A stretch of DNA of 64,000 nucleotides from Heptranchias perlo. Taxonomy: Eukaryota. A program made the translations under genes and the position numbers. Positions 8,840-64,000 of this stretch are shown here, piece by piece. The notes beneath the pieces are model-generated. The model worked only from the letters and a program-made list of their open reading frames with translations. It had not been told where the DNA came from and made no database searches. The stretch is taken from assembly GCF_035084215.1 (NCBI RefSeq), contig NW_027138407.1:682001-746000 (forward strand). The letters are read 5' to 3'. Numbering within the stretch: the stretch's first letter is position 1; each line of letters starts with the position of its first letter.

Positions 8840-9375
8840 ATAAGAACATAAGAACATAAGAAATAGAAGCAGGAGTAGGCCAATCGGCCCTTCGAGCCTG
8901 CTCCGCCAATTAATAAGATCATGGCTGATCTGATCCTAACCTCAAATCTAAATTCATGTCCAATTTCCTGCCCGCTCCCCGTAATCCCTAATTCCCTTCA
9001 CTTCTAGGAAACTGTCTATTTCTGCTTTGAATTTATTCAATGATGTAGCTTCCACAGCTTCCTGGGGCAGCAAATTCCACAGACCTACCACCCTCTGAGT
9101 GAAGAAGTTTCCCCTCATCTCAGTTTTGAAGGAGCAGCCGCTTATTCTAAGATTATGCCCCCTAGTTCTAGTTTCACCCATCCTTGGGAACATCCTCACC
9201 GCATCCACCCGATCAAGACCCTTCACAATCTTATATGTTTCAATAAGATCGCCTCTCATTCTTCTGAACTCCAATGAGTAGAGTCCCAATCTACTCAACC
9301 TCTCCTCATATGTCCGCCCCCTCATCCCAGGGATTAACCGAGTGAACCTTCTTTGTACTGCCTCGAGAGCAAGTA
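8840..9375 (-). mobile_element. Young CR1 LINE fragment (same subfamily as 52537-53023)
   Basis: ORF 8954-9391 LALEAVQRRFTRLIPG...; (ATGTTCTT)n tail. Confidence 0.9.
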
Positions 9376-41831: not shown

Positions 41832-41894
41832 TGGGTTCTACAAGTACTTTAGTCCCGCTTCCAAACGTTAGCTTATCATTGCCTCCATAATTCA
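41832..41894 (-). CDS. TRAJ: TRAJ J2: NYGGNDKLTFGSGTKVLVEP
   Basis: CACAGTG 41895-901 / 12 / ACAAAAAAT; donor GTAAG. Confidence 0.95.
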
Positions 41895-48899: not shown

Positions 48900-49264
48900 C
48901 ACAGTATTACACTTCCATGGAAAACACATTTTCCTACTTGTGATCGCTCCAGTCAGGAGTGTGGAAGTTCAATAGGCTTAAATCCAAGACGCCATTAAGT
49001 CTTTTTGGAATAAGATATCAAAAATACATATTGCTGTAACGTTAGACAATTGTTAGACTTTTGGAATTTTACTCGTGACAAAATATAATAGTGATTCCAT
49101 ATTACAGATGTATAATCCTGGCTCGGTTAGGGTTTCTGTTGTTTAGTGTTGTTCTCATAGATCTTGCAAGGTATGACATTTAACTGCGTCCTTCAGAAAA
49201 CCTGCACTGCCTTAAAACAATATTGATTGCGACAGAATCATAGTAAATCTTCACAGTTCAACTT

Positions 49265-49620
49265 CATTGTTCAAATCTTTTCATGGCCTCGCCCCTCTCC
49301 ATCTCCTAACACCCTCTGAGAACTCTGCGTTCCTTCTATTCTGGCCTCTTGTGCATCCCTGATTTCCATTGCTGGCCATGCCATCAGTTGCCTAGGCCCT
49401 CAGCTCTGGAATTCCCTTCCAGAACACCCCCGCCTCTCCGCCCGTCCCTCTCCTCCTTTAAGAAGCTATGTAAAAGCTACCCCCTTCACCAAGCTTTTAG
49501 TCACCTTTTCCAATATCTCTTTACATGGCTCGGTGTCACATTCTGTTGGATAACGCCCCTGTGAAAAGCCTCGGGACGTTCAACTAAAGCGGCTATGTAA
49601 ATGCAAATTGTTGCTTATTG
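49265..49620 (+). mobile_element. L2 LINE 3' fragment (predates the duplication)
   Basis: Paralogous copy at 55745-56085. Confidence 0.8.
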
Positions 49621-49905
49621 CACCACACTATTTAGCATTTTCTCAAAGGGAAACTGTTCCATCCAGTTAATTATTTTAGATTAATAAGGTGAACAATGGC
49701 ACACAATTAACTACACTTCTCATAACCATCACGCATAATACATGAATTATCATATCCATACTCCAATAAGCAGCGGCATAAATGTTCCAATAATAGGGAT
49801 TAATTGAACATTTAGAGAAATTATTTGATAAATTATAGACAGTCCAGAGAACATTCACATATATGTGAGTAGATAGACAGTCCATAGATATTAATGAATA
49901 CCTAC

Positions 49906-49968
49906 TTGGCTCCACAGTTAACTTTGTCCCGTTTCCAAAGATAAGCTTGGTGCTACTTCCTAAATTCA
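49906..49968 (-). CDS. TRAJ: TRAJ J12: NLGSSTKLIFGNGTKLTVEP
   Basis: CACAGCA 49969-75 / 12 / GCAAAAACT; donor GTAGG. Confidence 0.94.
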
Positions 49969-50482
49969 CACAGCATTGCGTCCTTTAGCAAAAACTCCCT
50001 TCAGATTAACTATAGCACATTATTGCTCTTTTTGGCAGTTATGTTTGAATATTTGGTATCGCCCAATCCTATTGTTGTGACATTACTTGTATAAACCGTC
50101 TTTAAATGACCATTGATATTTATTAGTCATATATGACTTATTTAGTCTGTTTATCGCCCAAGCATAACTTAGTTTTTCCATTAAAAATATACGATTACCA
50201 CCCCTCAGTACTTCACTGGACTGTCATCTTGGATTATATGTTTCATCTATGAGGTGGAGATCCATCTTATCCTTAACGAAGACACCACATTCTTTGTAGA
50301 GTTGAGGATGGATTAAAATTAGTACCAAATGCTTTAAGGATGTCAACATCAATTCTGGTAAAGAGTAGTTTATTTTAAAGATGACTAATAATATGTAGGA
50401 AGACTGAAGAAGAGATTTCATGTGATTATTTTCACAGCTAGTCTATTGGAGAGAAAACACATGGTGATATAAAGCAACTTAC

Positions 50483-50542
50483 TGGGTTGAACTCTGAGCT
50501 TTGTCCCAGCTCCAAATATCAAACTGTTGGAGTTTACATTCA
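50483..50542 (-). CDS. TRAJ: TRAJ J13: NVNSNSLIFGAGTKLRVQP
   Basis: CACACCA 50543-49 / 12 / ACAAAAATC; donor GTAAG. Confidence 0.93.
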
Positions 50543-50790
50543 CACACCATTACACCCCTTAACAAAAATCCCTCCTTTCAAAATGATTCATCCCCTATCA
50601 ATGTCCTGATTCAGATTAAGGACATCCAATTACCATTTTGGAAGTAGCTCAATTCGAAATTACATAATCACAAAGGTGTGAGCCTAATTACGTAAAACAA
50701 AATTTGATCCATATTTCAAATGGTTCTATACCATGCCTTTCTCTTATGTCGTAACGCATAAAACGGACATCCTTAAACATTCCCACTTAC

Positions 50791-50847
50791 TTGGTATAAC
50801 CGTGAGCCTGGTCCCAGATCCAAAGATCACCTTATCAGCAAAGTTCA
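50791..50847 (-). CDS. TRAJ: TRAJ J14: NFADKVIFGSGTRLTVIP
   Basis: CACAGCC 50848-54 / 12 / ACTAAAACC; donor GTAAG. Confidence 0.94.
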
Positions 50848-51170
50848 CACAGCCTGAAATGCTAATACTAAAACCTTTCCCAGCCAGCCATTCCCAGACA
50901 GAACATCACGTCACACTATTTGTTATTTCTTAAAATGCTGCACTTCACTGAATAAGGACATATTCCTGGTGCAATTGACATCAAATCCTATTGATTTAAA
51001 TCACGTTTCATGGGAAAACAGCATTTAGTACAGCAATAATAGGTTTGGACCTCAATTCAACCGTCATCCTTAATACCTGGCATAAATATACTCTGTTCCC
51101 TGAAGATAAAAAATGCACAGAGATCTATGAATTATCTAAAATATTTAAAAATGTAATTATTAATAGTTAC

Positions 51171-51229
51171 CAAGCGTTACGATGAGTTGAGTCCAATTCC
51201 AGACGTCAGCTTATCATATTCAATGTTCA
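51171..51229 (-). pseudogene. TRAJ: TRAJ J15 pseudogene: NIEYDKLTSGIG / frameshift / TQLIVTL
   Basis: F->S in FGxG, 1-nt deletion after the second Gly, 11-bp spacer (CACAGCA 51230-36, ACGAAAACT 51248-56), donor GTAAC. Confidence 0.82.
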
Positions 51230-51476
51230 CACAGCACTGGTTCATTCACGAAAACTCAACCACGACAGTATAACTCTTGTTTGCTTATATTGCTTGTTTA
51301 GTTTTGGTTAATTTTTGTTCAACCCAGTCAATGAAATGACCAGACATTGTTATCGTATTTTCCGAATTAATCCAAATTACTCAATCAGCTTCAACACATT
51401 TTATTTACCTGACTTAAGATAATTCTAAAGTTATAGGCCATAACATCACGAATTTAAGATAGCTTATTCTACTTAC

Positions 51477-51539
51477 TAGGTTCCACAGTTAGCTTCGTCC
51501 CGCTTCCAAAGGTAAGTTTGTTGTCGCTAGTATAAGCCA
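51477..51539 (-). CDS. TRAJ: TRAJ J16: AYTSDNKLTFGSGTKLTVEP
   Basis: CACAGTG 51540-46 / 12 / ACACAAAGT; donor GTAAG. Confidence 0.94.
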
Positions 51540-51781
51540 CACAGTGCTATATTCCCTAACACAAAGTCTGAAGTTCATTCTGCTGCAAAGTCAATGCAAC
51601 TCACTGCAGCTTCCAGATATAAATTCTAGCAGCAATGCTAGATTTTATTTACTAATTGCAGCATTACTTTCGAATTCCCTTCCTATATTTCATCTGACCT
51701 ATCGTTATATAACAAGAATACATCTCGCGAATACGAGTTTAAAGCTTTTGTAACGGTCTAGATAAACAGTATGATACCTAC

Positions 51782-51843
51782 TTGGCTGGACAGTAAGTTT
51801 TGTGCCCGATCCGAATAAGAGCTTGTAACCATTAATATCCTCC
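51782..51843 (-). CDS. TRAJ: TRAJ J17: EDINGYKLLFGSGTKLTVQP
   Basis: CACAGTG 51844-50 / 12 / ACAAAAAAC; donor GTAGG. Confidence 0.95.
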
Positions 51844-52300
51844 CACAGTGGCAATTAGTTTGACAAAAAACATTTGCCTGTCAAATCATCACTGTGAAAA
51901 GCATGGGAACGAATATAAATGAAAGATTTTGTGCCACTGTTGCCTCAATTCATTACAGAACTTGTCCAAATATAGAAACTGATTTAAATTCGCAAAATGT
52001 AGGCCCTTGTTCTTGTCTAAGTTTTGTCCCATTATGAAATGCCACCTCATGACTTAAAAAGCAATGGACCCATTCTCAAGAAAATTCAAATCCGCTTCAT
52101 TATAATTGCCTGCAGCCAATGTTCTTTCTTGGTTTGTTCCAGTTAATCATATTGACACTCAGAAAGGGGAATGGGTGCAATGTTTTATTTGTTCATTATT
52201 TGATGCAAAATACTAACCTATGCAAATGTTCTTAAGTCTCATTAGACGTTAGATTTACATCCAGCGATGTGAATAATACCATGCCATTAACGACACTTAC

Positions 52301-52363
52301 TTGGTTCCACAGTTAGTTTAGTCCCATTTCCAAAAATCAGTTTAGCAGCATTGCTATAACTCA
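52301..52363 (-). CDS. TRAJ: TRAJ J18: SYSNAAKLIFGNGTKLTVEP
   Basis: CACAATG 52364-70 / 12 / ACACAATCC; donor GTAAG. Confidence 0.94.
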
Positions 52364-52536
52364 CACAATGACATACTTCATAACACAATCCCTGTAACTC
52401 CATTTGGCAGGATCGTATGTCACTACTTCTAATTTCAGGTAATCTGACAACATTTTCTATTTGCAAAACATTCCAGTGGGACACTATGGTTTCATTTGAG
52501 ATTTAATTTTGTTCTACCAAATAAATGCAACGTCCC

Positions 52537-53023
52537 GGGGGTGAGGGGGCGGATATATGAGGAGAGGTTGAGTAGATTGGGACTCTACTCATTGGAGTTC
52601 AGAAGAATGAGAGGCGATCTTATTGAAACATATAAGATTGTGAAGGGGCTTGATCGGGTGGATGCGGTAAGGATGTTCCCAAGGATGGGTGAAACTAGAA
52701 CTAGGGGGCATAATCTTAGAATAAGGGGCTGCTCTTTCAAAACTGAGATGAGGAGAAACTTCTTCACTCAGAGGGTAGTCGGTCTGTGGAATTTGCTGCC
52801 CCAGGAAGCTGTGGAAGCTACATCATTAAATAAATTTAAAACAGAAATAGACAGTATCCTAGAAGTAAAGGGAATTAGGGGTTACGGGAAGCGGGCAGGA
52901 AATTGGACATGAATTCAAATTTGAGGTTAGGATCAGATCAGCCATGATCTTATTGAATGGCGGAGCAGGCTCGAGGGGCCGATTGGCCTACTCCTGCTCC
53001 TATTTCTTATGTTCTTATGTTCT
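52537..53023 (+). mobile_element. Young CR1 insertion specific to duplication copy A
   Basis: Empty site (acgtccc|aaattt) visible in copy B at ~59677; near-identical to 8840-9375. Confidence 0.93.
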
Positions 53024-53445
53024 AAATTTCTTATGAACGAAATTTACATATTACATGAAATACATTGTTGTTTCACATACACCTTAAAACTTTCAATCCT
53101 AACAGATTAGCGACCACAATTCACATTTAATTTATTTTGCTGCAATTGAATTAAATACAGATTTGTAAACTCTTCATGTTCAATTGTATCCCATATTCTG
53201 GTTAATGATATTGATCAGGCAAATGACCAATGCTGTGATGCAAAATGCTCGGTGTATTCACCAATAGTACGCCATTTTCCTTCTTAGCTACCCTTTGCAA
53301 TGTTAAAACGATTGCATTCATGTTATTTTAGGAGGTTTCTCAACAATATTAGCAGTCACATTTGCACTTTCAAATTGCGCTGACAAGTGTAAATTTGTAT
53401 ATCTCTAGCACCAATTAATCCAAACGTAAACAGTCCCATACTCAC

Positions 53446-53508
53446 TTGGAATTACAGAGAGTTTGGTCCCGGTTCCGAATATGACTTTGTAACCAGTTCC
53501 ATCCCTCC
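53446..53508 (-). CDS. TRAJ: TRAJ J19: RDGTGYKVIFGTGTKLSVIP
   Basis: CACACTG 53509-15 / 12 / ACAAAAACC; donor GTGAG. Confidence 0.95.
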
Positions 53509-54239
53509 CACACTGAAAATTTGGTTCACAAAAACCCTCTTACTACCAAGTGAAGTATTATCACGATGCGCACTTATCAATATGTTCAGGGTGTAGAAAA
53601 AATATTAGGTTCTCATTGAGTTTACTTCATGGCAGTGATGGGTACCTCGATCACATTGTAAATTGAACAGATGGTACTGAGTTTTCTATGTTATAAACAT
53701 TTTGCGAAACCTCACTGTACACAACTCACAACTGAAAAATCAATGCGATTTAGCATCAATGAACGTCATGGAACAAGGTTCATTTGTAAACGCTAGCTAA
53801 AGTGATTGTCATTAAAGAAATCTTGCCCTTTACCTCGATGTTTTGCACTTTTGACAATATTTCAACATTCAAAAATCATAAGGTGTGCAATATTTAAATA
53901 TAAATGTTGGAAAAATACTAAGAATTTGTTTTTCTTGTGATTTATCCTCGATACTGCACTGAACATATTGTCCGCTGTAAAGTTATAACAGCATTTCTCT
54001 GAGAATCAGCACAGATAGTTTCACTTTACACAGAAATAATAGTATATAAATTGGTATATTGATGCACCCTTCATTTACAGGCTCAAAGTGAATACCATAC
54101 TGAATCAACGTTGTCACTATTGAAAAAGAAAGTTTTGGAATAAGTTATCAATATTTTATTAAACCATGTACCTCCGACTACCACTTGAGCAATTGATTGC
54201 TGCTGATGCTTTCATTCATCAATATGCTATATTACTTAC

Positions 54240-54302
54240 TGAGTGCTATGGTCAGTCTGGTCCCACTTCCAAATATCAAGGGATTTGCTGCCCCTGTATT
54301 CA
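54240..54302 (-). CDS. TRAJ: TRAJ J20: NTGAANPLIFGSGTRLTIAL
   Basis: CACAGCG 54303-09 / 12 / ACAAAAACA; donor GTAAG. Confidence 0.94.
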
Positions 54303-54723
54303 CACAGCGCCTAACGCCTTTACAAAAACATTTCCAGTCAACTGTTTGGATAATTACTCAGTTATTACTTTCTACTGTCCAACTAAAATGGCAACACTTC
54401 ATCAACTTTGCTTCTAACTACCACCGCTCCCATTTCTTCACATGGCCCACCTCCCACTCTTCCCTTCCCTTTCTCAACTCCTCTATCTCCATTTCTAAAT
54501 ATGGGATGTCCACCAATGGCTACTTCAAAATGGCTCATCCTTTCCATGTCGCCCTCCATACTTCAACAGACCGATTTATTTATGTTTTCTTTGTTAATTA
54601 TTTCAGGAAAATATAGATATGTCTTGCATCATTTAATTTGAAATTTCTGAAATGTTTGCAACGAAATAAACCCCTTCTACACAAGGACAACAATATTGAT
54701 GAATTGGGATTTCAAAGACTTAC

Positions 54724-54783
54724 TGGACGCCACGTTTAGCTTCGTTCCTGGTCCAAATGTGAGCTTTCCTGTTCCATCATTCA
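54724..54783 (-). CDS. TRAJ: TRAJ J21: NDGTGKLTFGPGTKLNVAS
   Basis: CACAGTA 54784-90 / 12 / ACAAAAACT; donor GTAAG. Confidence 0.94.
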
Positions 54784-55218
54784 CACAGTACCAATCACCG
54801 GTACAAAAACTGCTTCGTGCTATTTTGATTTCGGGAGGAACTTTTTTTTTGTTGATAATTAGACAATATTATCATCTCTAACAATTTCAGGACCAAACAT
54901 TTCATGTGACTTCGTACTATGTATTTTTTCCAAACCTCTTTCTATCCTCAAATGTACTAGCGTCCTCCTTAAAACCCACAATATGGACATTTTTGCAGTT
55001 TGCAACATTATTCCAAACCGGTGTAGTTGCTCTGCCATTATCAACCCTACCATGGTTGAAAGACCACCTTATTCCACGAATAACTGCATTTGCACAACTT
55101 GCTAATTCACTATTTATTCTCATGTGACAACAAATCATCAAAACACACCAAAACCGCCAACATTGTTTCATAGTGAAGGTATCTTATTTATTAATATAAC
55201 AAACGGCAACATACTTAC

Positions 55219-55283
55219 TGGGTTCTACAAGTAGGTTGGTTCCTTTTCCAAATATTGGCTTATTCAGCACTCCTCCAGAATCG
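55219..55283 (-). CDS. TRAJ: TRAJ J22: DSGGVLNKPIFGKGTNLLVEP
   Basis: Perfect consensus RSS CACAGTG 55284-90 / 12 / ACAAAAACC; donor GTAAG. Confidence 0.95.
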
Positions 55284-55744
55284 CACAGTGGGATATACCT
55301 GAACAAAAACCTGTTGTACTCAACTGCATTACCTTGTCCAGCCACCATGCCTTGCCTTCTCCATGCCCATCGCGAGCTGCTACTTTTAATTTACACTCAA
55401 TATCTCCCTCGTATTCTAATATAATGCCAAACGAATCATGCAAGATCTTTGAGCACGGAATTATACGGAGAATAAACACATTTGCATTTTAGGATAATCA
55501 AAAATACACATTGCTGTAACGTTAGACAATTGTTAGACTTTTGGAATTTTACTAGTGACAAAATATAATAGTGATTCCACATTACAGAGGTATAATCCTG
55601 TCTCGGTTAGGGTTTCTGTTGTTATAGTGTTGTTCTCATAGATCTTTCAAGGTGTGTCATTTAACTGCGTCCTTCAGAAAACCTGCACTACCTTAAAACA
55701 ATATTGATTGCGACAGAATCATAGTAAATCTTCACAGTTCAACT

Positions 55745-56085
55745 TCATTGTCCAAATCTTTTCATGGCCTCGTCCCTCTCCATCTCCTAACACCCTCTGA
55801 GAACTCTGCGTTCCTTCTATTCTGGCCTCTTGTGCATCCCTGATTTCCATCGCCCCACCATTGCTGGCCGTGCCATCAGCTGCCTCGGCCCTAAGCTCTG
55901 GAATTCCCTCCCTAAACACCTCCGCCTCTCCGCTCGTCCCTCTCCCCCTTCACCAAGCTTTTAGTCACCTTTTCCAATATCTGTTTACATGGCTTCGTGT
56001 CACATTCTGTTGGATAACGCCCCTGTGAAAAGCCTCGGGACGTTTAACTAAAGCGGCTATGTAAATGCAAATTGTTGTTTATTGC
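55745..56085 (+). mobile_element. L2 LINE 3' fragment (duplicate)
   Basis: Paralogous to 49265-49620. Confidence 0.8.
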
Positions 56086-56384
56086 ACCACACTACTTAGC
56101 ATTTTCTCAAAGGGAAATTGATCCATGTAACCCTGTTCCATCCAGTTAATTATTTTAGATTAATAAGGTGAACAATGGCAGACAATTAACTGCACTTCTC
56201 ATAACCATCACGCATAATACATGAATTATCATATCCATACTCCAATAAGCAGCGGCATAAATGTTCCAATAATAGGGATTAATTAAACATTTAGAGAAAT
56301 TATTTGATAAATTATAGACAGTCCAGAGAACATACACATATATGTGAGTAGATAGACTGACAATAGATATTAATGAATACCTAC

Positions 56385-56447
56385 TTGGCTCCACAGTTAA
56401 CTTTGTCCCGTTTCCAAAGATAAGCTTAGTGCCAGTTCCTAAATTCA
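56385..56447 (-). CDS. TRAJ: TRAJ J23 (paralogue of J12): NLGTGTKLIFGNGTKLTVEP
   Basis: CACAGCA 56448-54 / 12 / GCAAAAACT; donor GTAGG. Confidence 0.94.
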
Positions 56448-57789
56448 CACAGCATTGCGTCCTTTAGCAAAAACTCCCTTCAGATTAACTATAGCACATT
56501 AATGCACTTTTTGGCAGTTATGTTTGAATACTTGGTATCGCCCAATCCTATTGTTGTGACATTACTTGTAAAAACCGTTTTTAAATGACCATTGATATTC
56601 ATTAGTCATATATGACTTATTTAGTCTGTTTATCGCCCAAGCATAACTTACTTTTTCCATTAAAAATATACAGTTACCATTTCTAGATCAGTTCACCAGA
56701 ACTCTCCTAAAGATTTCCAAGTACTTCTGAAAGTGGAACACCCCCTTAGTACTTCACTGGACTGTCATCTTGGATTATATGTTTAATCTGTGAGGTGGAG
56801 ATCCATCTCTCAACTTTCTAATGCAAAGAATAGAGTGCCAGCAACTGAGCCAAGTTATGATTTATGACACTTCTCTCTCCCAATTTCTGTCGATTCTTTC
56901 ATTAATGAAACCTTACGTTGTTCTATTACAACCATGTTTTTTTTTAATTTTCCCAATGGTTAACGTCAATAGCTCGTAATTAGTTTCCAGATTATTAGAA
57001 GCATCAATGTCTTTAACATAATTGGCGAATGTTTATAGGCACCATTTGGAATTTTCTAAAAATAGGTTACAACTAACTAATAATAATAATTAGACAATTG
57101 ACTAATTTTTCACTTGTAAAAGAGAGTAATATTTGATCAAACCTAAAGCCAACCGATAAAGTAAATATCGAATACAATCTCAGAGCTAAAATAATGAACT
57201 TGAGACCATTTCATACGGTCACTTCCTTATGGATCAAATACTTTATTATTTCTTTCTGTTCATTAGCAGACTAGGTGCACTATTGTTGAAAACTCTTTAA
57301 TAAAAATTAAATACATCACCACTGCCAAAATTTTTGCTACCACCGTTTAGTTGCTATAAATTTCACATTATCTTGTCGCACCACAACAAAGCAGAAATAT
57401 ATACTAATCCCAACTCCACTATCAATTTGTATAGATTATGCGAGGGCCACAACAATGTATTTAATGAAAAATTAAGAACAATGAAAACGATTAGGATCGC
57501 ATTCAGACCATTAGCTTATTTCATCATCGAGCTCTCTTTTGAAATGCCATTCAGAAACTTGTAAAGTCTTATCTTATCCTTAACTAAGACACCACATTCT
57601 TTGTAGAGTTAAGGATGGATTAAAATTAGTACCAAATGCTTTAAGGATGCCAACATCAATTCTGGTAAAGAGTAGTTTATTTTAAAGATGACTAATAATA
57701 TGTGGGAAGACTGAAGAAGAGATTTCATGTGATTATTTTCACAGCTAGTCTATTGGAGAGAAAACACATGGTGATATAAAGCAACTTAC

Positions 57790-57849
57790 TGGGTTGAACT
57801 CTGAGCTTTGTCCCAGCTCCAAATATCAAACTGTAGGTGTTTGCATTCA
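57790..57849 (-). CDS. TRAJ: TRAJ J24 (paralogue of J13): NANTYSLIFGAGTKLRVQP
   Basis: CACACCA 57850-56 / 12 / ACAAAAATC; donor GTAAG. Confidence 0.93.
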
Positions 57850-58097
57850 CACACCATTACACCCCTTAACAAAAATCCCTCCTTTCAAAATGATTCATCC
57901 CCTATCAATGTCCTGATTCAGATTAAGGACATCCAATTACCATTTTGGAAGTAGCTCAATTCGAAATTACATAACCACAAAGGTGTGAGCCTAATTACGT
58001 AAAACAAAATTTGATCCATATTTCAATTAGTTCTATACCATGCCTTTCTCTTATGTCGTAACGCATAAATCGGACATCCTTAAACATTCCCACTTAC

Positions 58098-58154
58098 TTG
58101 GTATAACCGTGAGCCTGGTCCCAGATCCAAAGATCACCTTATCAGCAAAGTTCA
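58098..58154 (-). CDS. TRAJ: TRAJ J25 (identical to J14): NFADKVIFGSGTRLTVIP
   Basis: CACAGCC 58155-61 / 12 / ACTAAAACC; donor GTAAG. Confidence 0.94.
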
Positions 58155-58616
58155 CACAGCCTGAAATGCTAATACTAAAACCTTTCCCAGCCAGCCATTC
58201 CCAGACAGAACATCACGTCACACTATTTGTTATTTCTTAAAATGCTGCACTTCACTGAGTAATGACAAATTCCTGGTCCAATTGACATCAAATCCTTTTG
58301 ATTTAAATCACGTTTCATGGGAAAACAGCATTTAGTACAGCAATAATAGGTTTGGACCTAAATTCAACCGTCATCCCTAATACCTGCCATAAATATACTC
58401 TGTTCGCTGAAGATATAAAATGCTCAGAAATCTATGAATTATCTAAAATAATTTTTGTTCAACCCAGTCAATGGAATGACCAGACATTGTTATCGTATTT
58501 TTCGAATTAATCCAAATTACTCAATCAGCTTCAACACATTTTATTTACCTGGCTTAAGATAATTCTAAAGTTATAGGCCATAACATCACTAATTTAAGAT
58601 AGCTTATTCTACTTAC

Positions 58617-58679
58617 TAGGTTCCACAGTTAGCTTCGTTCCGCTTCCAAAAGTAAGTATGTTGTTGCCAGTATAAGCCA
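58617..58679 (-). CDS. TRAJ: TRAJ J26 (paralogue of J16): AYTGNNILTFGSGTKLTVEP
   Basis: CACAGTG 58680-86 / 12 / ACACAAAGT; donor GTAAG. Confidence 0.94.
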
Positions 58680-58922
58680 CACAGTGCTATATTCCCTAAC
58701 ACAAAGTCTTAAGTTCATTCTGCAGCAATACTCAATGCAACTCACGACAGCTTCCAGATATAAATTCTAGCAGCAATGCTAGATTTTATTTCCTAATTGC
58801 AGCATTACTTTCGAATTCCCTTCCTGAATTTCATCTGACCTATCATTATATAACAAGAATACATCTCGCGAATACGAGTTTAAAGATTTTGTAACGGTCT
58901 TGATAAACAGTATAATACCTAT

Positions 58923-58984
58923 TTGGCTGGACAGTAAGTTTGGTGCCAGATCTGAATAAGAGTTTGTAACCATTAATATCCTCC
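58923..58984 (-). pseudogene. TRAJ: TRAJ J27 pseudogene (paralogue of J17): EDINGYKLLFRSGTKLTVQP
   Basis: Donor GT mutated to AT (ATAGG), FGSG->FRSG, heptamer CACAATG, nonamer ACAAGATCC. Confidence 0.88.
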
Positions 58985-59441
58985 CACAATGGCAATTAGT
59001 TTGACAAGATCCATTTGTTTGTCAAACCATCCCTGTGAAAAGCATGGGAACGAATATAATTGAAAGATTGGGTGCCACTGTTGCCTCAATTCATTACAGA
59101 ACTTGTCCAATTATAGAAACTGATCTAAATTCGCAAAATTTAGGCCCTTGTTCTTGTCTAAGTTTTGTCCCATTACGAAATGCCACCTCTTGACTTAAAA
59201 AGCAATGGACCCATTCTCACGAAAATTCAAATTCGCTGCATTATAATTGTCCGAGGCAAAGGTTCTTTCTTGGTTTGTTCCAGTTAATCATATTAGCACT
59301 CAGAAAGGGGAATGGGTGCAATTTTTTATTTGTTCATTGTTTGATGTAAAATACTAACCTATGCAAATGTTCATAAGTCTCATTAGACGTTAGATTTACA
59401 TCCAGCGATGTGAATAATACCATGCCATTAACGACACTTAC

Positions 59442-59504
59442 TTGGTTCCACAGTTAGTTTAGTCCCATTTCCAAAAATCAGTTTAGCAGCATTGCTATAA
59501 TTCA
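59442..59504 (-). CDS. TRAJ: TRAJ J28 (paralogue of J18): NYSNAAKLIFGNGTKLTVEP
   Basis: CACAATG 59505-11 / 12 / ACACAATCC; donor GTAAG. Confidence 0.94.
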
Positions 59505-60100
59505 CACAATGACATACTTCATAACACAATCCCTGTAACTCTATTTGGCAGCATCGTATGTCACTACTTCTAAATTCAGGCAATCTGACGACATGTTCTG
59601 TTTGCAAAACATTCCAGTGGGACATTATGGTGTCATTTAAAATTTAATTTTGTTCTACCAAATAAATGAAACGTCCCAAATTTCATATGAACTAAATTTA
59701 CATATTACATGAAATTCATTGTTGTTTCACATACACCTTAACACTTTCAATCCTAACAGATTAGCGACCACAATTCACATTTAATTTATTTTGCTGCAAT
59801 TGAATTAAAAACAGATTTGTAAACTCTTCATGCTCAATTGTATCCCATATTCTGGTTAATGATATTGATCAGGCAAATGACAAATGCTGTGATGCAAAAT
59901 ACGAAGGTGTATTCACCAATAGTACGCCATTTTCCTTCTTAGCTACCCTTTGCAATGTTAAAACGATTGCATTCATGTTATTTTAGGAGGTTTTTCAACA
60001 ATATTAGCAGTCATATTTGCACTTTCAAATTGCCCTGAGAAGTGTAAATTTGTATATCTCTAGCACCAATTAATCCAAATGTAAACAGTCCCATACTCAC

Positions 60101-60163
60101 TTGGAATCACAGAGAGTTTGGTCCCGGTTCCGAATATGACGTTATAACCAGCTCCATCCCTCC
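60101..60163 (-). CDS. TRAJ: TRAJ J29 (paralogue of J19): RDGAGYNVIFGTGTKLSVIP
   Basis: Perfect RSS CACAGTG 60164-70 / 12 / ACAAAAACC; donor GTGAG. Confidence 0.95.
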
Positions 60164-60893
60164 CACAGTGAAAATTTGGTTCACAAAAACCCTCTTACTA
60201 CCAAGTGAAGTATTATCACGATGCGCACTTATCAATATGTTCAGGGTGTAGAAAAATGTTAGGTTCTCATTGAGTTTACTTCATGGCAGTGATGGGTACC
60301 TCGATCACATTGTAAATTGAACAGATGGTACTGAGTTTTCTATGTTATAATCATTTTGCGAAACCTCACTGTACACAACTCACAACTGACAAATTAATGC
60401 GATTTAGCATCAATGAACGTCATGGAACAAGGTTCATTTGTAAACGCTAGCTAAAGTGATTGTCATTAAAGAAATCTTGCCCTTTACCTCGATGTTTTGC
60501 ACTTTTGACAATATTTCAACAATCAAATATAATAAGGGCTGCAATATTTAAATACTAATGTTAGAAAAATACTAAGGATATATTTTTCTTTTGATTTATT
60601 CTCGATACTGCACTGTACATATTGTCCACTGTAAAGTTATAACAGCATTTCTCTGAGAATCAGCACAGATATTTTCATTTTACACAGAAATAATAGTATA
60701 TACATTGGTATATTGATGCACCCTTCATTTACAGGCTCAAAGTCAATACCATACTGAATCAACGTTGGCGCTATTTAAAGAGAAACTTTTGGAGTAAGTT
60801 ATCAATATTTTATTAAACCATGTACCTCCGACTACCACTTGAGCAATTGATTGCTGCTGATGCTTTCATTCATCAATGTGTTATATTACTTAC

Positions 60894-60956
60894 TGAGTGC
60901 TATGGTCAGTCTGGTCCCACTTCCAAATACCAGGGGATCTGCTCCCCCTGTATTCA
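60894..60956 (-). CDS. TRAJ: TRAJ J30 (paralogue of J20): NTGGADPLVFGSGTRLTIAL
   Basis: CACAGCG 60957-63 / 12 / ACAAAAACC; donor GTAAG. Confidence 0.94.
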
Positions 60957-61376
60957 CACAGCGCCTAACGCCTTTACAAAAACCTTTCCAGTCAACTGTT
61001 TAGATAATTACTCAATTATTTCTTTTTACTGTCCAACTAAAATGACAACACTTCATCAACTTTGCTTCTAACTACCACCGCTCCCATTCCTTCACATGGC
61101 CCACCTCCCACTCTTCCCTTCCCTTTCTCAACTCCTCTATCTCCATTTCTAAATATGGGATGTTCACCAATGGCTACTTCAAAATGGCACACCCTTTCCA
61201 TGTCGCCCTCCATACTTCAACAGACCGATTTATTTATGTTTTCTTTGTTAATTATTTCAGGAAAATATAGATATGTCTTACTTCGCTAAATTTGAAATTT
61301 CTGAAATATTTGCAACAAAATAAACCCATCGACACAAGGAGAAGAATATTGATGAATTGGGATTTCAAAGACTTAC

Positions 61377-61436
61377 TGGGCACCACGTTTAACTTCGTTC
61401 CTGGTCCAAATGTTAGCTTTCTTGTTGCATCATTCA
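61377..61436 (-). CDS. TRAJ: TRAJ J31 (paralogue of J21): NDATRKLTFGPGTKLNVVP
   Basis: CACAGTA 61437-43 / 12 / ACAAAAACT; donor GTAAG. Confidence 0.94.
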
Positions 61437-61870
61437 CACAGTACCAATCACCGTTACAAAAACTGCTTCGTGCTATTTTGATGTAGGGAGGAATTTTTTT
61501 TTTGTTGATAATTAGACAATATTTTAATCTCCAACAATTTCAGGACCAAACATTTCACGTGACTTCGTACTATGTATTTTTTCCAAACCTCTTTCTATCC
61601 TCAAATGTACTAGCGTCCTACTCAAAACCCACAATATGGACATTTTTGCAGTTTGCAACATTATTCCAAACCGGTGTAGTTGGACTGCCATTATCAACCC
61701 TACCACGGTTTAAAGACCACATTATTCCACGAATAACTGCATTTGCACAACTTGCTAATTCACTATTTATTTTGTGTGACAACAAATCATCAAAACAAAC
61801 CAAAACCGCGAGCATTGTTTCATAGCGAGGGTATCTTATTTATTAATATAACAAACGGCAACATACTTAC

Positions 61871-61935
61871 TGGGTTCTACAAGTAGGCTGGTTCCTTTTC
61901 CAAATATTAGCTTATCCAGCCCTCCTCCAGAATCG
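61871..61935 (-). CDS. TRAJ: TRAJ J32 (paralogue of J22): DSGGGLDKLIFGKGTSLLVEP
   Basis: Perfect RSS CACAGTG 61936-42 / 12 / ACAAAAACC; donor GTAAG. Confidence 0.95.
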
Positions 61936-63057
61936 CACAGTGGTATATACCTGAACAAAAACCTGTTGTACTCAACTGCATTACCTTGTCCAGCCACCAT
62001 GTCTTGCCTTCTCCATGCCCATCGCGAGCTGCTACTTTTAATTTACACTCAATGTCTCCCTCGTATTCTAATATAATGCCAAACGAACCATGCAAGATAT
62101 TTGAGCACGGAATCATACGGAGAATAAACACATTAGGATTTTAGGATAATGTCAAAATATTTGTCGAGTTTACTAGCTACTGCCAAAACATAAGCAAAAA
62201 AAGGGTGACGCCCTGCAAAAATATTATTATGATATTTTCGATAGGAAAAAGTGTACCAGTTTTCAATGAAACCGGGAATCCAAACAACATTTCGATTTCA
62301 ATGTTGTTGGGCCAGAGTTCCTGCTCACTATTTCCCCAGTCTTGGTTACTTATATTACCTTTCATGTAAAACACATGACAATAATTTATTACAAACCGTC
62401 TGCCAGTAATACGAGTCGTTGGAGATTATAGACTTAAAAAATCTTTCTGATACATTTCCCTGACAAAAATCGCCAAGATTCTAATATTGGTAGATTTTTC
62501 CGACATTTCCATTGTTCATTTTCTTGTTCCTTGAATGAACTTTCTGATTCATATTCTAACTAAAGCACAATATTTATTTTTGGCAAATATAACTACACCA
62601 CAATACAATGCATATGGTTTTGTTAATGAAAAGCTAATCTTGAATAAACATGTAGACATATTGTCAGCCTTTAAAGAAAGTAACAAGGTTTATACATCTT
62701 GCAGTACCAGTCAGTAATTTAAATCTATTTTGGTAGCAACATTTTCAAAAGATATTGATCTCATTATCATCCGTTCTAGGTAATCATTCATTTAAAAAAA
62801 ATTAATTGTATTGCATTTTTGGCTTTTAATATGTATGTTTTACAGGACACATGGTATTAAGATTAATCTGACTTGAACTCTGTTTGGTACAAGTTAGTGA
62901 CTCACTGCAAATTCGAGGCTGTAGCATTTTTAAATGGCAGTTTATTTCGCCAAATTGTGGCTCTAAGTGAAATCCTCCCCAGATTTATAGATTCAAGTAT
63001 TATTTTTTGTTAGATTAATGAACCGACTATTATAAGTTATTACAAATCACGTCATTT

Positions 63058-63476
63058 GTGCTCCCTTGAATATAGAAGATTAAGGGGTGATCTAGTTGAA
63101 GTGTTAAATTTGATTAAATGATTTGAAAGGGTAGATAGATAGAATCTATTTCCTCTGGTGGGAGAGTCCAGAACAAGGGGGCATAACCTTAAAATTATAG
63201 TTAGGTGTTCGGGGTAATGTCAGAAAGCACTTCTTTACACAAAGGGCAATGGGAATCTAGAAACTCTCTCTCCCAAAAAGCTGTTGAGGCTGGGGTGAAA
63301 TGAAAGGTTCAAAACTGAGATTGATAGATTTTTGTTGGGCAAGGGTATTAAGGGTTACTGAACCAAGGTGGGTAGATGGAGTTAAGATATAATTCAGCCA
63401 TGATCTAATTGAATGGCGGAATGGGCTCGAGGGGCTGAATGGCCTACTTTTCCCAGGATGTCCTTATGTTCCTATG
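63058..63476 (+). mobile_element. CR1 LINE 3' fragment
   Basis: RRLRGDLVEV...; (ATGTTCCT) tail. Confidence 0.84.
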
Positions 63477-63603
63477 ACAGCTTTGGATCAATAATATTGC
63501 TTTAATTCAGATTCTTGTAATAAAACATTCTATGGCATTGTGGAGATTTCTAGGCACTTTGTTGGGGTGGGGGGAGGATAGGGAGGGAAAAGTGAGTACT
63601 CAC

Positions 63604-63666
63604 TCGGTATCACAACGAGTTTAGTCCCAGTTCCAAATATGAGCTCCTTAGTCCCTCCAATATTCA
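63604..63666 (-). CDS. TRAJ: TRAJ J33: NIGGTKELIFGTGTKLVVIP
   Basis: CACACCA 63667-73 / 12 / ACAAAAACC; donor GTGAG. Confidence 0.94.
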
Positions 63667-64000
63667 CACACCAATAAACATCCTAACAAAAACCAGCCTC
63701 TGTGGACGCAATTATACTTCACACACATTCTCAGTTGCTGTCTCTCTACTGTGAATTCTGCAGTCAGGGCAAGCATCAGAATATATTGTCCACATGAGTT
63801 ATTACTTTATTCCTGAGCATCAGTGTTGTAACTGGAAGTCTTTGAAGATTTTTTTTTGCGTTGCTTCATTATATTATCACAGAAATAGACTGCAGACTTT
63901 CATATTATTTTACCTTGACCGATTGAATGCAACAATTAAAATATGTGAGATTATTGATTAGCACTCAAGAACTGTGCTGGATAAAGTCAAAAAGCCCACT

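Follow-up and report, generated by a model that had tools for sequence, protein, structure and literature searches.

Duplicated T cell receptor alpha J segments of Heptranchias perlo diverge by amino-acid replacement in their CDR3-encoding halves

Su and Nei reportedly described, in 2001, diversifying selection on complementarity-determining regions (CDRs) 1 and 2 of T cell receptor (TCR) V genes. Such selection is now established (PMC13396459): replacements are in excess in the germline-encoded, antigen-contacting loops and the framework is conserved. In the part of that paper considered here, the codon-level test concerns V genes only; balancing selection is placed near human TRAJ37, with one CDR3 and three framework region 4 (FR4) changes, and is argued from the J segment setting much of CDR3-alpha. 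Here we analyse a TCR-alpha J array of Heptranchias perlo (assembly GCF_035084215.1, contig NW_027138407.1, positions 682,001–746,000), using one genome from one individual. The whole stretch of DNA analysed, which we call the window, is 64,000 nucleotides (nt) long; adjoining contig DNA was included, with the numbering carried past the window end (position 64000) as window-equivalent positions. Twin J segments created by tandem duplication differ mainly by replacements in the half that encodes CDR3, a pattern best read, with a probability of about 0.62, as diversifying selection on germline CDR3-alpha residues. Unlike TRAJ37, which is an allelic polymorphism of one human gene, this is fixed-looking divergence between paralogues across many J segments with FR4 conserved. 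Duplicated V genes of the same locus show the known V-gene pattern too, whereas our target is the CDR3 half of J segments, compared between tandem duplicates with the intergenic DNA of the same duplication as clock.

In cartilaginous and bony fishes, microhomology between V T8G9 and J T1G2 guides TRA joining (Giorgetti et al. 2023, PMC10322711), so that the germline J segment sets much of CDR3-alpha. The H. perlo locus shares this signature: TG occupies coding positions 1–2 in 39 of 54 TRAJ and, with alpha, delta and immunoglobulin (Ig)-like V pooled, positions 8–9 in 26 of 43 V ends, and the first J nucleotides are conserved between duplicates. The main-text parts of PMC10322711 considered here treat conservation of the J 5′ end and, supplements aside, contain no replacement rates for loop codons. 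Nurse shark TCR-alpha is the same type of locus and has a replacement bias in its CDRs, which the passages of PMC5931798 considered here attribute to somatic mutation that is hotspot-enriched and often tandem, whereas the differences described below are germline, between paralogues, and lack those marks. TRAJ genes of Atlantic salmon are duplicated, their arrays having likewise expanded in this way, and the passages covered contain no selection test on duplicates (PMC8559430). Our literature search, which left most subscription papers and supplements outside its reach, found no replacement-rate test between duplicated TRAJ. TCR-alpha loci hold dozens of J segments, and because these are short and old, drift and selection on their CDR3 halves can rarely be told apart. 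Tandem duplicates that carry their own intergenic clock allow such a test, which here favours selection about as strong as that on V CDRs. The result extends the known V-gene CDR pattern to J segments, an expected principle that involves no new mechanism.

The larger duplication (duplication 1) comprises copy A at 49017–55503 and copy B at 55497–62157, both delimited by self-BLAST and global alignment, with contig depth as further evidence for copy B. Together they hold ten paired TRAJ and one pseudo-J present in copy A only. Replacement (N) and silent (S) differences were counted separately in the CDR3 half (coding sequence 5′ of the FGxG Phe) and in FR4 (FGxG to the splice donor). An earlier note on this DNA had compared the nine intact pairs by hand, and codon alignment returns exactly its counts of 19N/5S 5′ of FGxG and 3N/3S from there to the donor. 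Its length of about 306 nt for the 3′ portion is correct, and the 5′ portion measures 251 nt rather than about 260. Taken on its own, the contrast of 19:5 with 3:3 is non-significant (Fisher P = 0.30).

A different picture emerges when the CDR3 halves are compared with the DNA around them, in tests that are all count-based and use no codon-model program. Intergenic DNA differs between copies A and B at 214 of 4,843 aligned sites (4.4%), and the CDR3 halves at 24 of 251 (one-sided Fisher P = 0.0006; 25 of 279 and P = 0.0011 with the pseudogene pair J17/J27 restored). We used this whole-duplication value because the intron beside J13/J24, cited in the earlier note for its few differences, does show only 3 differences in the 180 sites on either side (1.7%) but is unusually quiet and so unsuited as a background. 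The intergenic background appears neutral, since repeat-derived stretches differ at 13 of 289 and 19 of 421 sites (4.5%; a third is lower, 2 of 131) and J silent sites pooled over both duplications, CDR3 half and FR4 together, show 10 differences with 9.9 expected. Under a base- and CpG-specific model of the intergenic DNA, the CDR3 halves carry 19 replacements with 7.64 expected (P = 0.0004) and 5 silent differences with 2.70 expected, which is not significantly raised (P = 0.14), and FR4 carries 3 replacements with 10.0 expected (P = 0.01) and 3 silent differences with 4.0 expected. Intergenic divergence is overdispersed (variance/mean 1.5–1.8), and we therefore drew real intergenic windows as a clustered empirical null, under which the 24 differences compare with 11.1 ± 3.7 (P = 0.002; P = 0.0006 with windows taken within 300 bp of each J) and the 19 changed codons with 7.4 ± 2.8 (P = 0.0005). 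CDR3-half divergence thus stands above the duplication-wide background, measured here in intergenic DNA where the earlier note had proposed overall intronic divergence as the yardstick, and the excess sits in replacement sites, in support of the selection half of that note's interpretation.

The changes are spread over most pairs, all on the minus strand, and every peptide pair quoted in the earlier note is present in the sequence. J12 (49906–49968) and J23 (56385–56447), reading NLGSSTKLI before FGNG and NLGTGTKLI, differ by 2N/1S in the CDR3 half, and J13 (NVNSNSLI, 50483–50542) and J24 (NANTYSLI, 57790–57849) by 3N/0S within a tract diverged by 1.7%. J14 (50791–50847) and J25 (58098–58154) are identical. 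The counts are 3N/1S for J16 (AYTSDNKLT, 51477–51539) and J26 (AYTGNNILT, 58617–58679), 1N/0S for J18 (52301–52363) and J28 (59442–59504), 2N/1S for J19 (RDGTGYKVI, 53446–53508) and J29 (RDGAGYNVI, 60101–60163), and 3N/1S for J20 (NTGAANPLI, 54240–54302) and J30 (NTGGADPLV, 60894–60956). J21 (NDGTGKLT, 54724–54783) and J31 (NDATRKLT, 61377–61436) differ by 2N/1S, with a further 2N/1S in FR4. J22 (DSGGVLNKPI, 55219–55283) and J32 (DSGGGLDKLI, 61871–61935) have a third copy beyond the window, DSGGVLNKLI, which polarises their differences: A gained one CDR3-half and one FR4 change, and B gained two CDR3-half changes. J17 (51782–51843) is intact and its twin J27 (58923–58984) decayed, with FRSG, a donor that reads AT instead of GT and an altered recombination signal sequence (RSS), and this pair was excluded from the nine. 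FGxG and a GT donor 34 nt after the start of the Phe codon are present in all 18 segments of the intact pairs; J27 fails this check. Of the 24 codons with amino-acid changes, 18 form a peak between −6 and −3 relative to the Phe; the J 5′ end and the final two codons are spared. The RSSs are almost unchanged, as had been noticed earlier: the ten pairs show 8 differences in 280 sites of heptamer, spacer and nonamer, 4 of them in J17/J27.

Duplication 2 (61735–66537 and 66540–71349, window-equivalent; 61735–64000 lies in the window) overlaps the end of copy B. It is 4.8 kb long and 94.6% identical, with intergenic divergence at 201 of 4,204 sites (4.8%), and holds six J pairs, one copy of one pair being frameshifted with FATG. 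The stretch common to both duplications, 421 aligned bases in three copies, carries 7, 12 and 11 private changes, so the two are of similar age. Over the five intact pairs of duplication 2 the CDR3 half shows 9N/0S and FR4 1N/2S. Dropping the frameshifted pair and the one shared with duplication 1 leaves four of the six pairs as an independent set, with 7 replacements where 3.6 are expected by nucleotide (P = 0.075) and no silent difference; two of these four show no difference in the CDR3 half, one of them lying amid 200- and 245-bp tracts of identity. Pooling the 13 independent pairs gives 26 CDR3-half replacements with 11.3 expected, a ratio of 2.3 (95% confidence interval (CI) 1.5–3.4; codon-level P = 0.0008), and a significant excess over all J silent sites (P = 0.016). 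FR4, with 4 replacements where 14.6 are expected, is under purifying selection.

The V region beyond, at 130–270 kb window-equivalent, provides a control from the same locus. It holds ten duplicated V pairs, nine of which pass the filters (the tenth, with 76% amino-acid identity, was dropped). CDR1 and CDR2 of these pairs carry 29 replacements with 14.5 expected and 3 silent differences with 4.5 expected, and the framework carries 32 replacements with 71.3 expected and 22 silent differences with 25.1 expected. The control is rough: CDR limits are approximate, some of the pairs have a branch in common, one V contains a stop codon, and every difference in a changed codon was scored as N. At this resolution the 5′ half of J resembles a V CDR in its behaviour, and FR4 resembles framework.

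Two haplotypes set in tandem, or consensus errors, would produce false paralogues, and among the contigs listed none spans the whole stretch and none bridges the A/B junction. Such an artefact is very improbable, given that contig depths of A-only (10–13) and B-only (12–16.5) DNA equal those of single-copy flanks (about 10–13) while collapsed A+B contigs reach about double (17–24), in runs from one sample that may be the source of the assembly. The depth supports duplication 1 being real. A and B are moreover set apart by several insertions or deletions (indels), including two segments found in A only (a repeat insertion of 487 bp and a stretch of 167 bp) and one of 766 bp in B only, and J19 and J29 are each found in contigs, which differ from the assembly by 1 letter and by none, respectively. 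A second possibility is a mutational process confined to the J 5′ half, for instance germline AID-like deamination, nicking of coding ends by RAG or micro-conversion from other J segments. Shark TCR-alpha does undergo somatic hypermutation by AID (PMC5931798), silent differences in duplication 1 are somewhat numerous (5 with 2.7 expected, non-significant), and transitions are somewhat commoner than in intergenic DNA (21 of 32 against 181 of 397), a small point that conservative replacement would also explain. A local mutator would raise silent sites and show a sequence context, so the pooled CDR3-half silent count of 5 with 4.0 expected counts against it. The excess is also spread over contexts, counted in both copies: 14 with 8.3 expected at WRC/GYW, 17 with 9.4 at other C/G, 23 with 9.9 at WA/TW and 10 with 7.0 at other A/T sites. 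In the nurse shark, by comparison, hotspots are reported to be enriched 4.3-fold for somatic mutations, which are often tandem (PMC5931798). Adjacent differences are no more frequent than in intergenic DNA (4 of 32 against 68 of 397), changes peak in mid-loop rather than at the heptamer, intact pairs contain no indels, and the resemblance of variant alleles to other J segments is no greater than that of random mutants (mean 7.4 against 7.3 nt, P = 0.53). The flanks were searched for the divergence peak that conversion blocked at J segments alone would leave, and none was found there. With no WRC/GYW enrichment, tandem excess or rise towards the coding end, and silent sites near neutral, the localised mutational process that the earlier note had offered as its other explanation is improbable and largely refuted.

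The main rival is relaxed constraint combined with chance, in which the CDR3 half is neutral, FR4 conserved, and the excess a high draw, noticed post hoc, from a background patchily homogenised by gene conversion. Several results agree with it and weigh against selection. Within the CDR3 half, replacement is not significantly faster than silent change (P = 0.49 in duplication 1; P = 0.14 pooled, against CDR3-half silent sites alone). Duplication 2, the sole out-of-sample replicate, agrees in direction but is undecisive by itself: by codon it has 5 changes with 3.5 expected (P = 0.28), two of them adjacent doublets, its total differences are 8 with 5.5 expected (P = 0.23), and its likelihood ratio for a 2–2.5-fold excess is 0.5–3.4. 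The third copy of J22 gained no CDR3-half change. Four pairs have changes at the conserved Lys and Leu at positions −3 and −2 (K to I, N or M; L to P), where 41 of 54 TRAJ have the consensus K and 42 the consensus L before Phe, and these losses could be decay as much as adaptation. Decayed J copies occur in both duplications, and the overdispersed background contains identical tracts of 188–245 bp. The case for selection, in turn, depends on the comparison with intergenic DNA and comes mainly from one duplication of a single genome, and most nurse shark alpha joins carry N/P nucleotides (Ott et al. 2018, PMC5931798), so that the dominance of the J segment in CDR3-alpha is incomplete in sharks. 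Neutral change nevertheless cannot outpace the background, and the observed rate exceeds it 2.3-fold with a lower bound of 1.5; P stays at 0.0005–0.003 under nulls that preserve clustering and local divergence; J13/J24 holds its three replacements inside the quiet 1.7% tract; and V CDRs of the same locus show an equal excess. We therefore regard relaxed constraint with chance as unlikely and prefer diversifying selection on the CDR3 halves.

Two adjoining tandem duplications copied ten and six TCR-alpha J segments, whose copies then gained CDR3-half amino-acid changes at about twice the neutral rate, probably because twins encoding different CDR3-alpha loops were favoured. With TG microhomology between V end and J start, joining would leave much of the J 5′ half intact, and this part would make up the CDR3-alpha loop. 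A duplicate J that stayed identical would add nothing to the repertoire, and a changed loop would add a new germline specificity and would be favoured, with selection for divergence at the loop apex and purifying selection on the RSS, the TG start and FR4. Peptide–major histocompatibility complex ligands and pathogens are candidate selective agents. More tentatively, in fishes whose joining is steered by microhomology the J 5′ half may be a germline CDR3 under diversifying selection as strong as that on V CDR1 and CDR2, with arrays growing by duplication and adaptive loop divergence. If so, it would give the alpha chain a fourth hypervariable region, one that is inherited, and generality across species would connect selection on inherited J sequence with the limits that microhomology sets on alpha joining in fishes.

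The J array runs on the minus strand from 40989 to the window end and on to window-equivalent 85210. Its J segments, found with RSS consensus motifs, carry a 5′ RSS with a 12-bp spacer, FGxG and a GT donor. The array is identified as TCR-alpha because of a C1-set constant exon at 35530–35831 on the minus strand (PF07654, weak PF09291), covered end to end by RNA contigs. A TCR-delta C/J block flanks the array on one side and the single alpha-type C gene on the other; upstream, beyond the window, lie a second C gene, more J segments and then V genes. This order matches the general TRA/TRD layout. RNA contigs cover the constant exon and a single-copy J at 41832–41890; no duplicated J appears among the contigs listed, which is no evidence either way. 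Of the seven sequencing runs listed, all from one sample and possibly the source of the assembly, none is listed with RNA over the duplicated stretch. A homologue search for longer proteins with the constant exon scored none of 179 candidates, which is weak evidence. Among the V genes is a triplicated block of about 22 kb (window-equivalent about 204000–272000), whose CDR1 and CDR2 replacements are about twice the flank expectation. Three V segments at window-equivalent 135693, 141057 and 369447, the first two directly upstream of the delta J block, are presumably Ig-heavy-like, a label that we assigned by eye.

Several smaller features lie within the duplications. The A-only repeat insertion at 52537–53023 is young and very high-copy, being 95% identical to 8843–9333. 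J15 (51171–51229), the A-only segment lacking a copy-B counterpart, is probably a pseudogene, since SGIG replaces FGxG and its 3′ part is one base short. A B-only J relic with an internal deletion lies at 57415–57450, inside the 766-bp stretch lacking in A. The identical tracts in duplication 2, at window-equivalent 64977–65516, lie around one J and possibly reflect gene conversion. An attempt to date the duplications from the epaulette shark mutation rate (7 × 10⁻¹⁰ per generation, CI 1.4–14.1 × 10⁻¹⁰; PMC10587355), giving about 3 × 10⁷ generations per branch, was dropped as too loose and based on another species' rate.

Alternative letters in the duplicated region are the paralogue's base in 18 of 36 rows among those listed and accompany double depth, and we read them accordingly as collapsed A/B contigs rather than alleles. 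In J21, DNA-contig differences at 54751 and 54758 match neither paralogue; one is silent and one turns FGPG into FGSG, and they are possibly a second allele. In the constant exon, an RNA contig of run X6 (depth 8) has 8 differences within 31 bases (35683–35713), 5 of them adjacent and 4 residues altered, which are absent from the DNA run compared and could reflect a hypermutated clone, another allele or a chimera.

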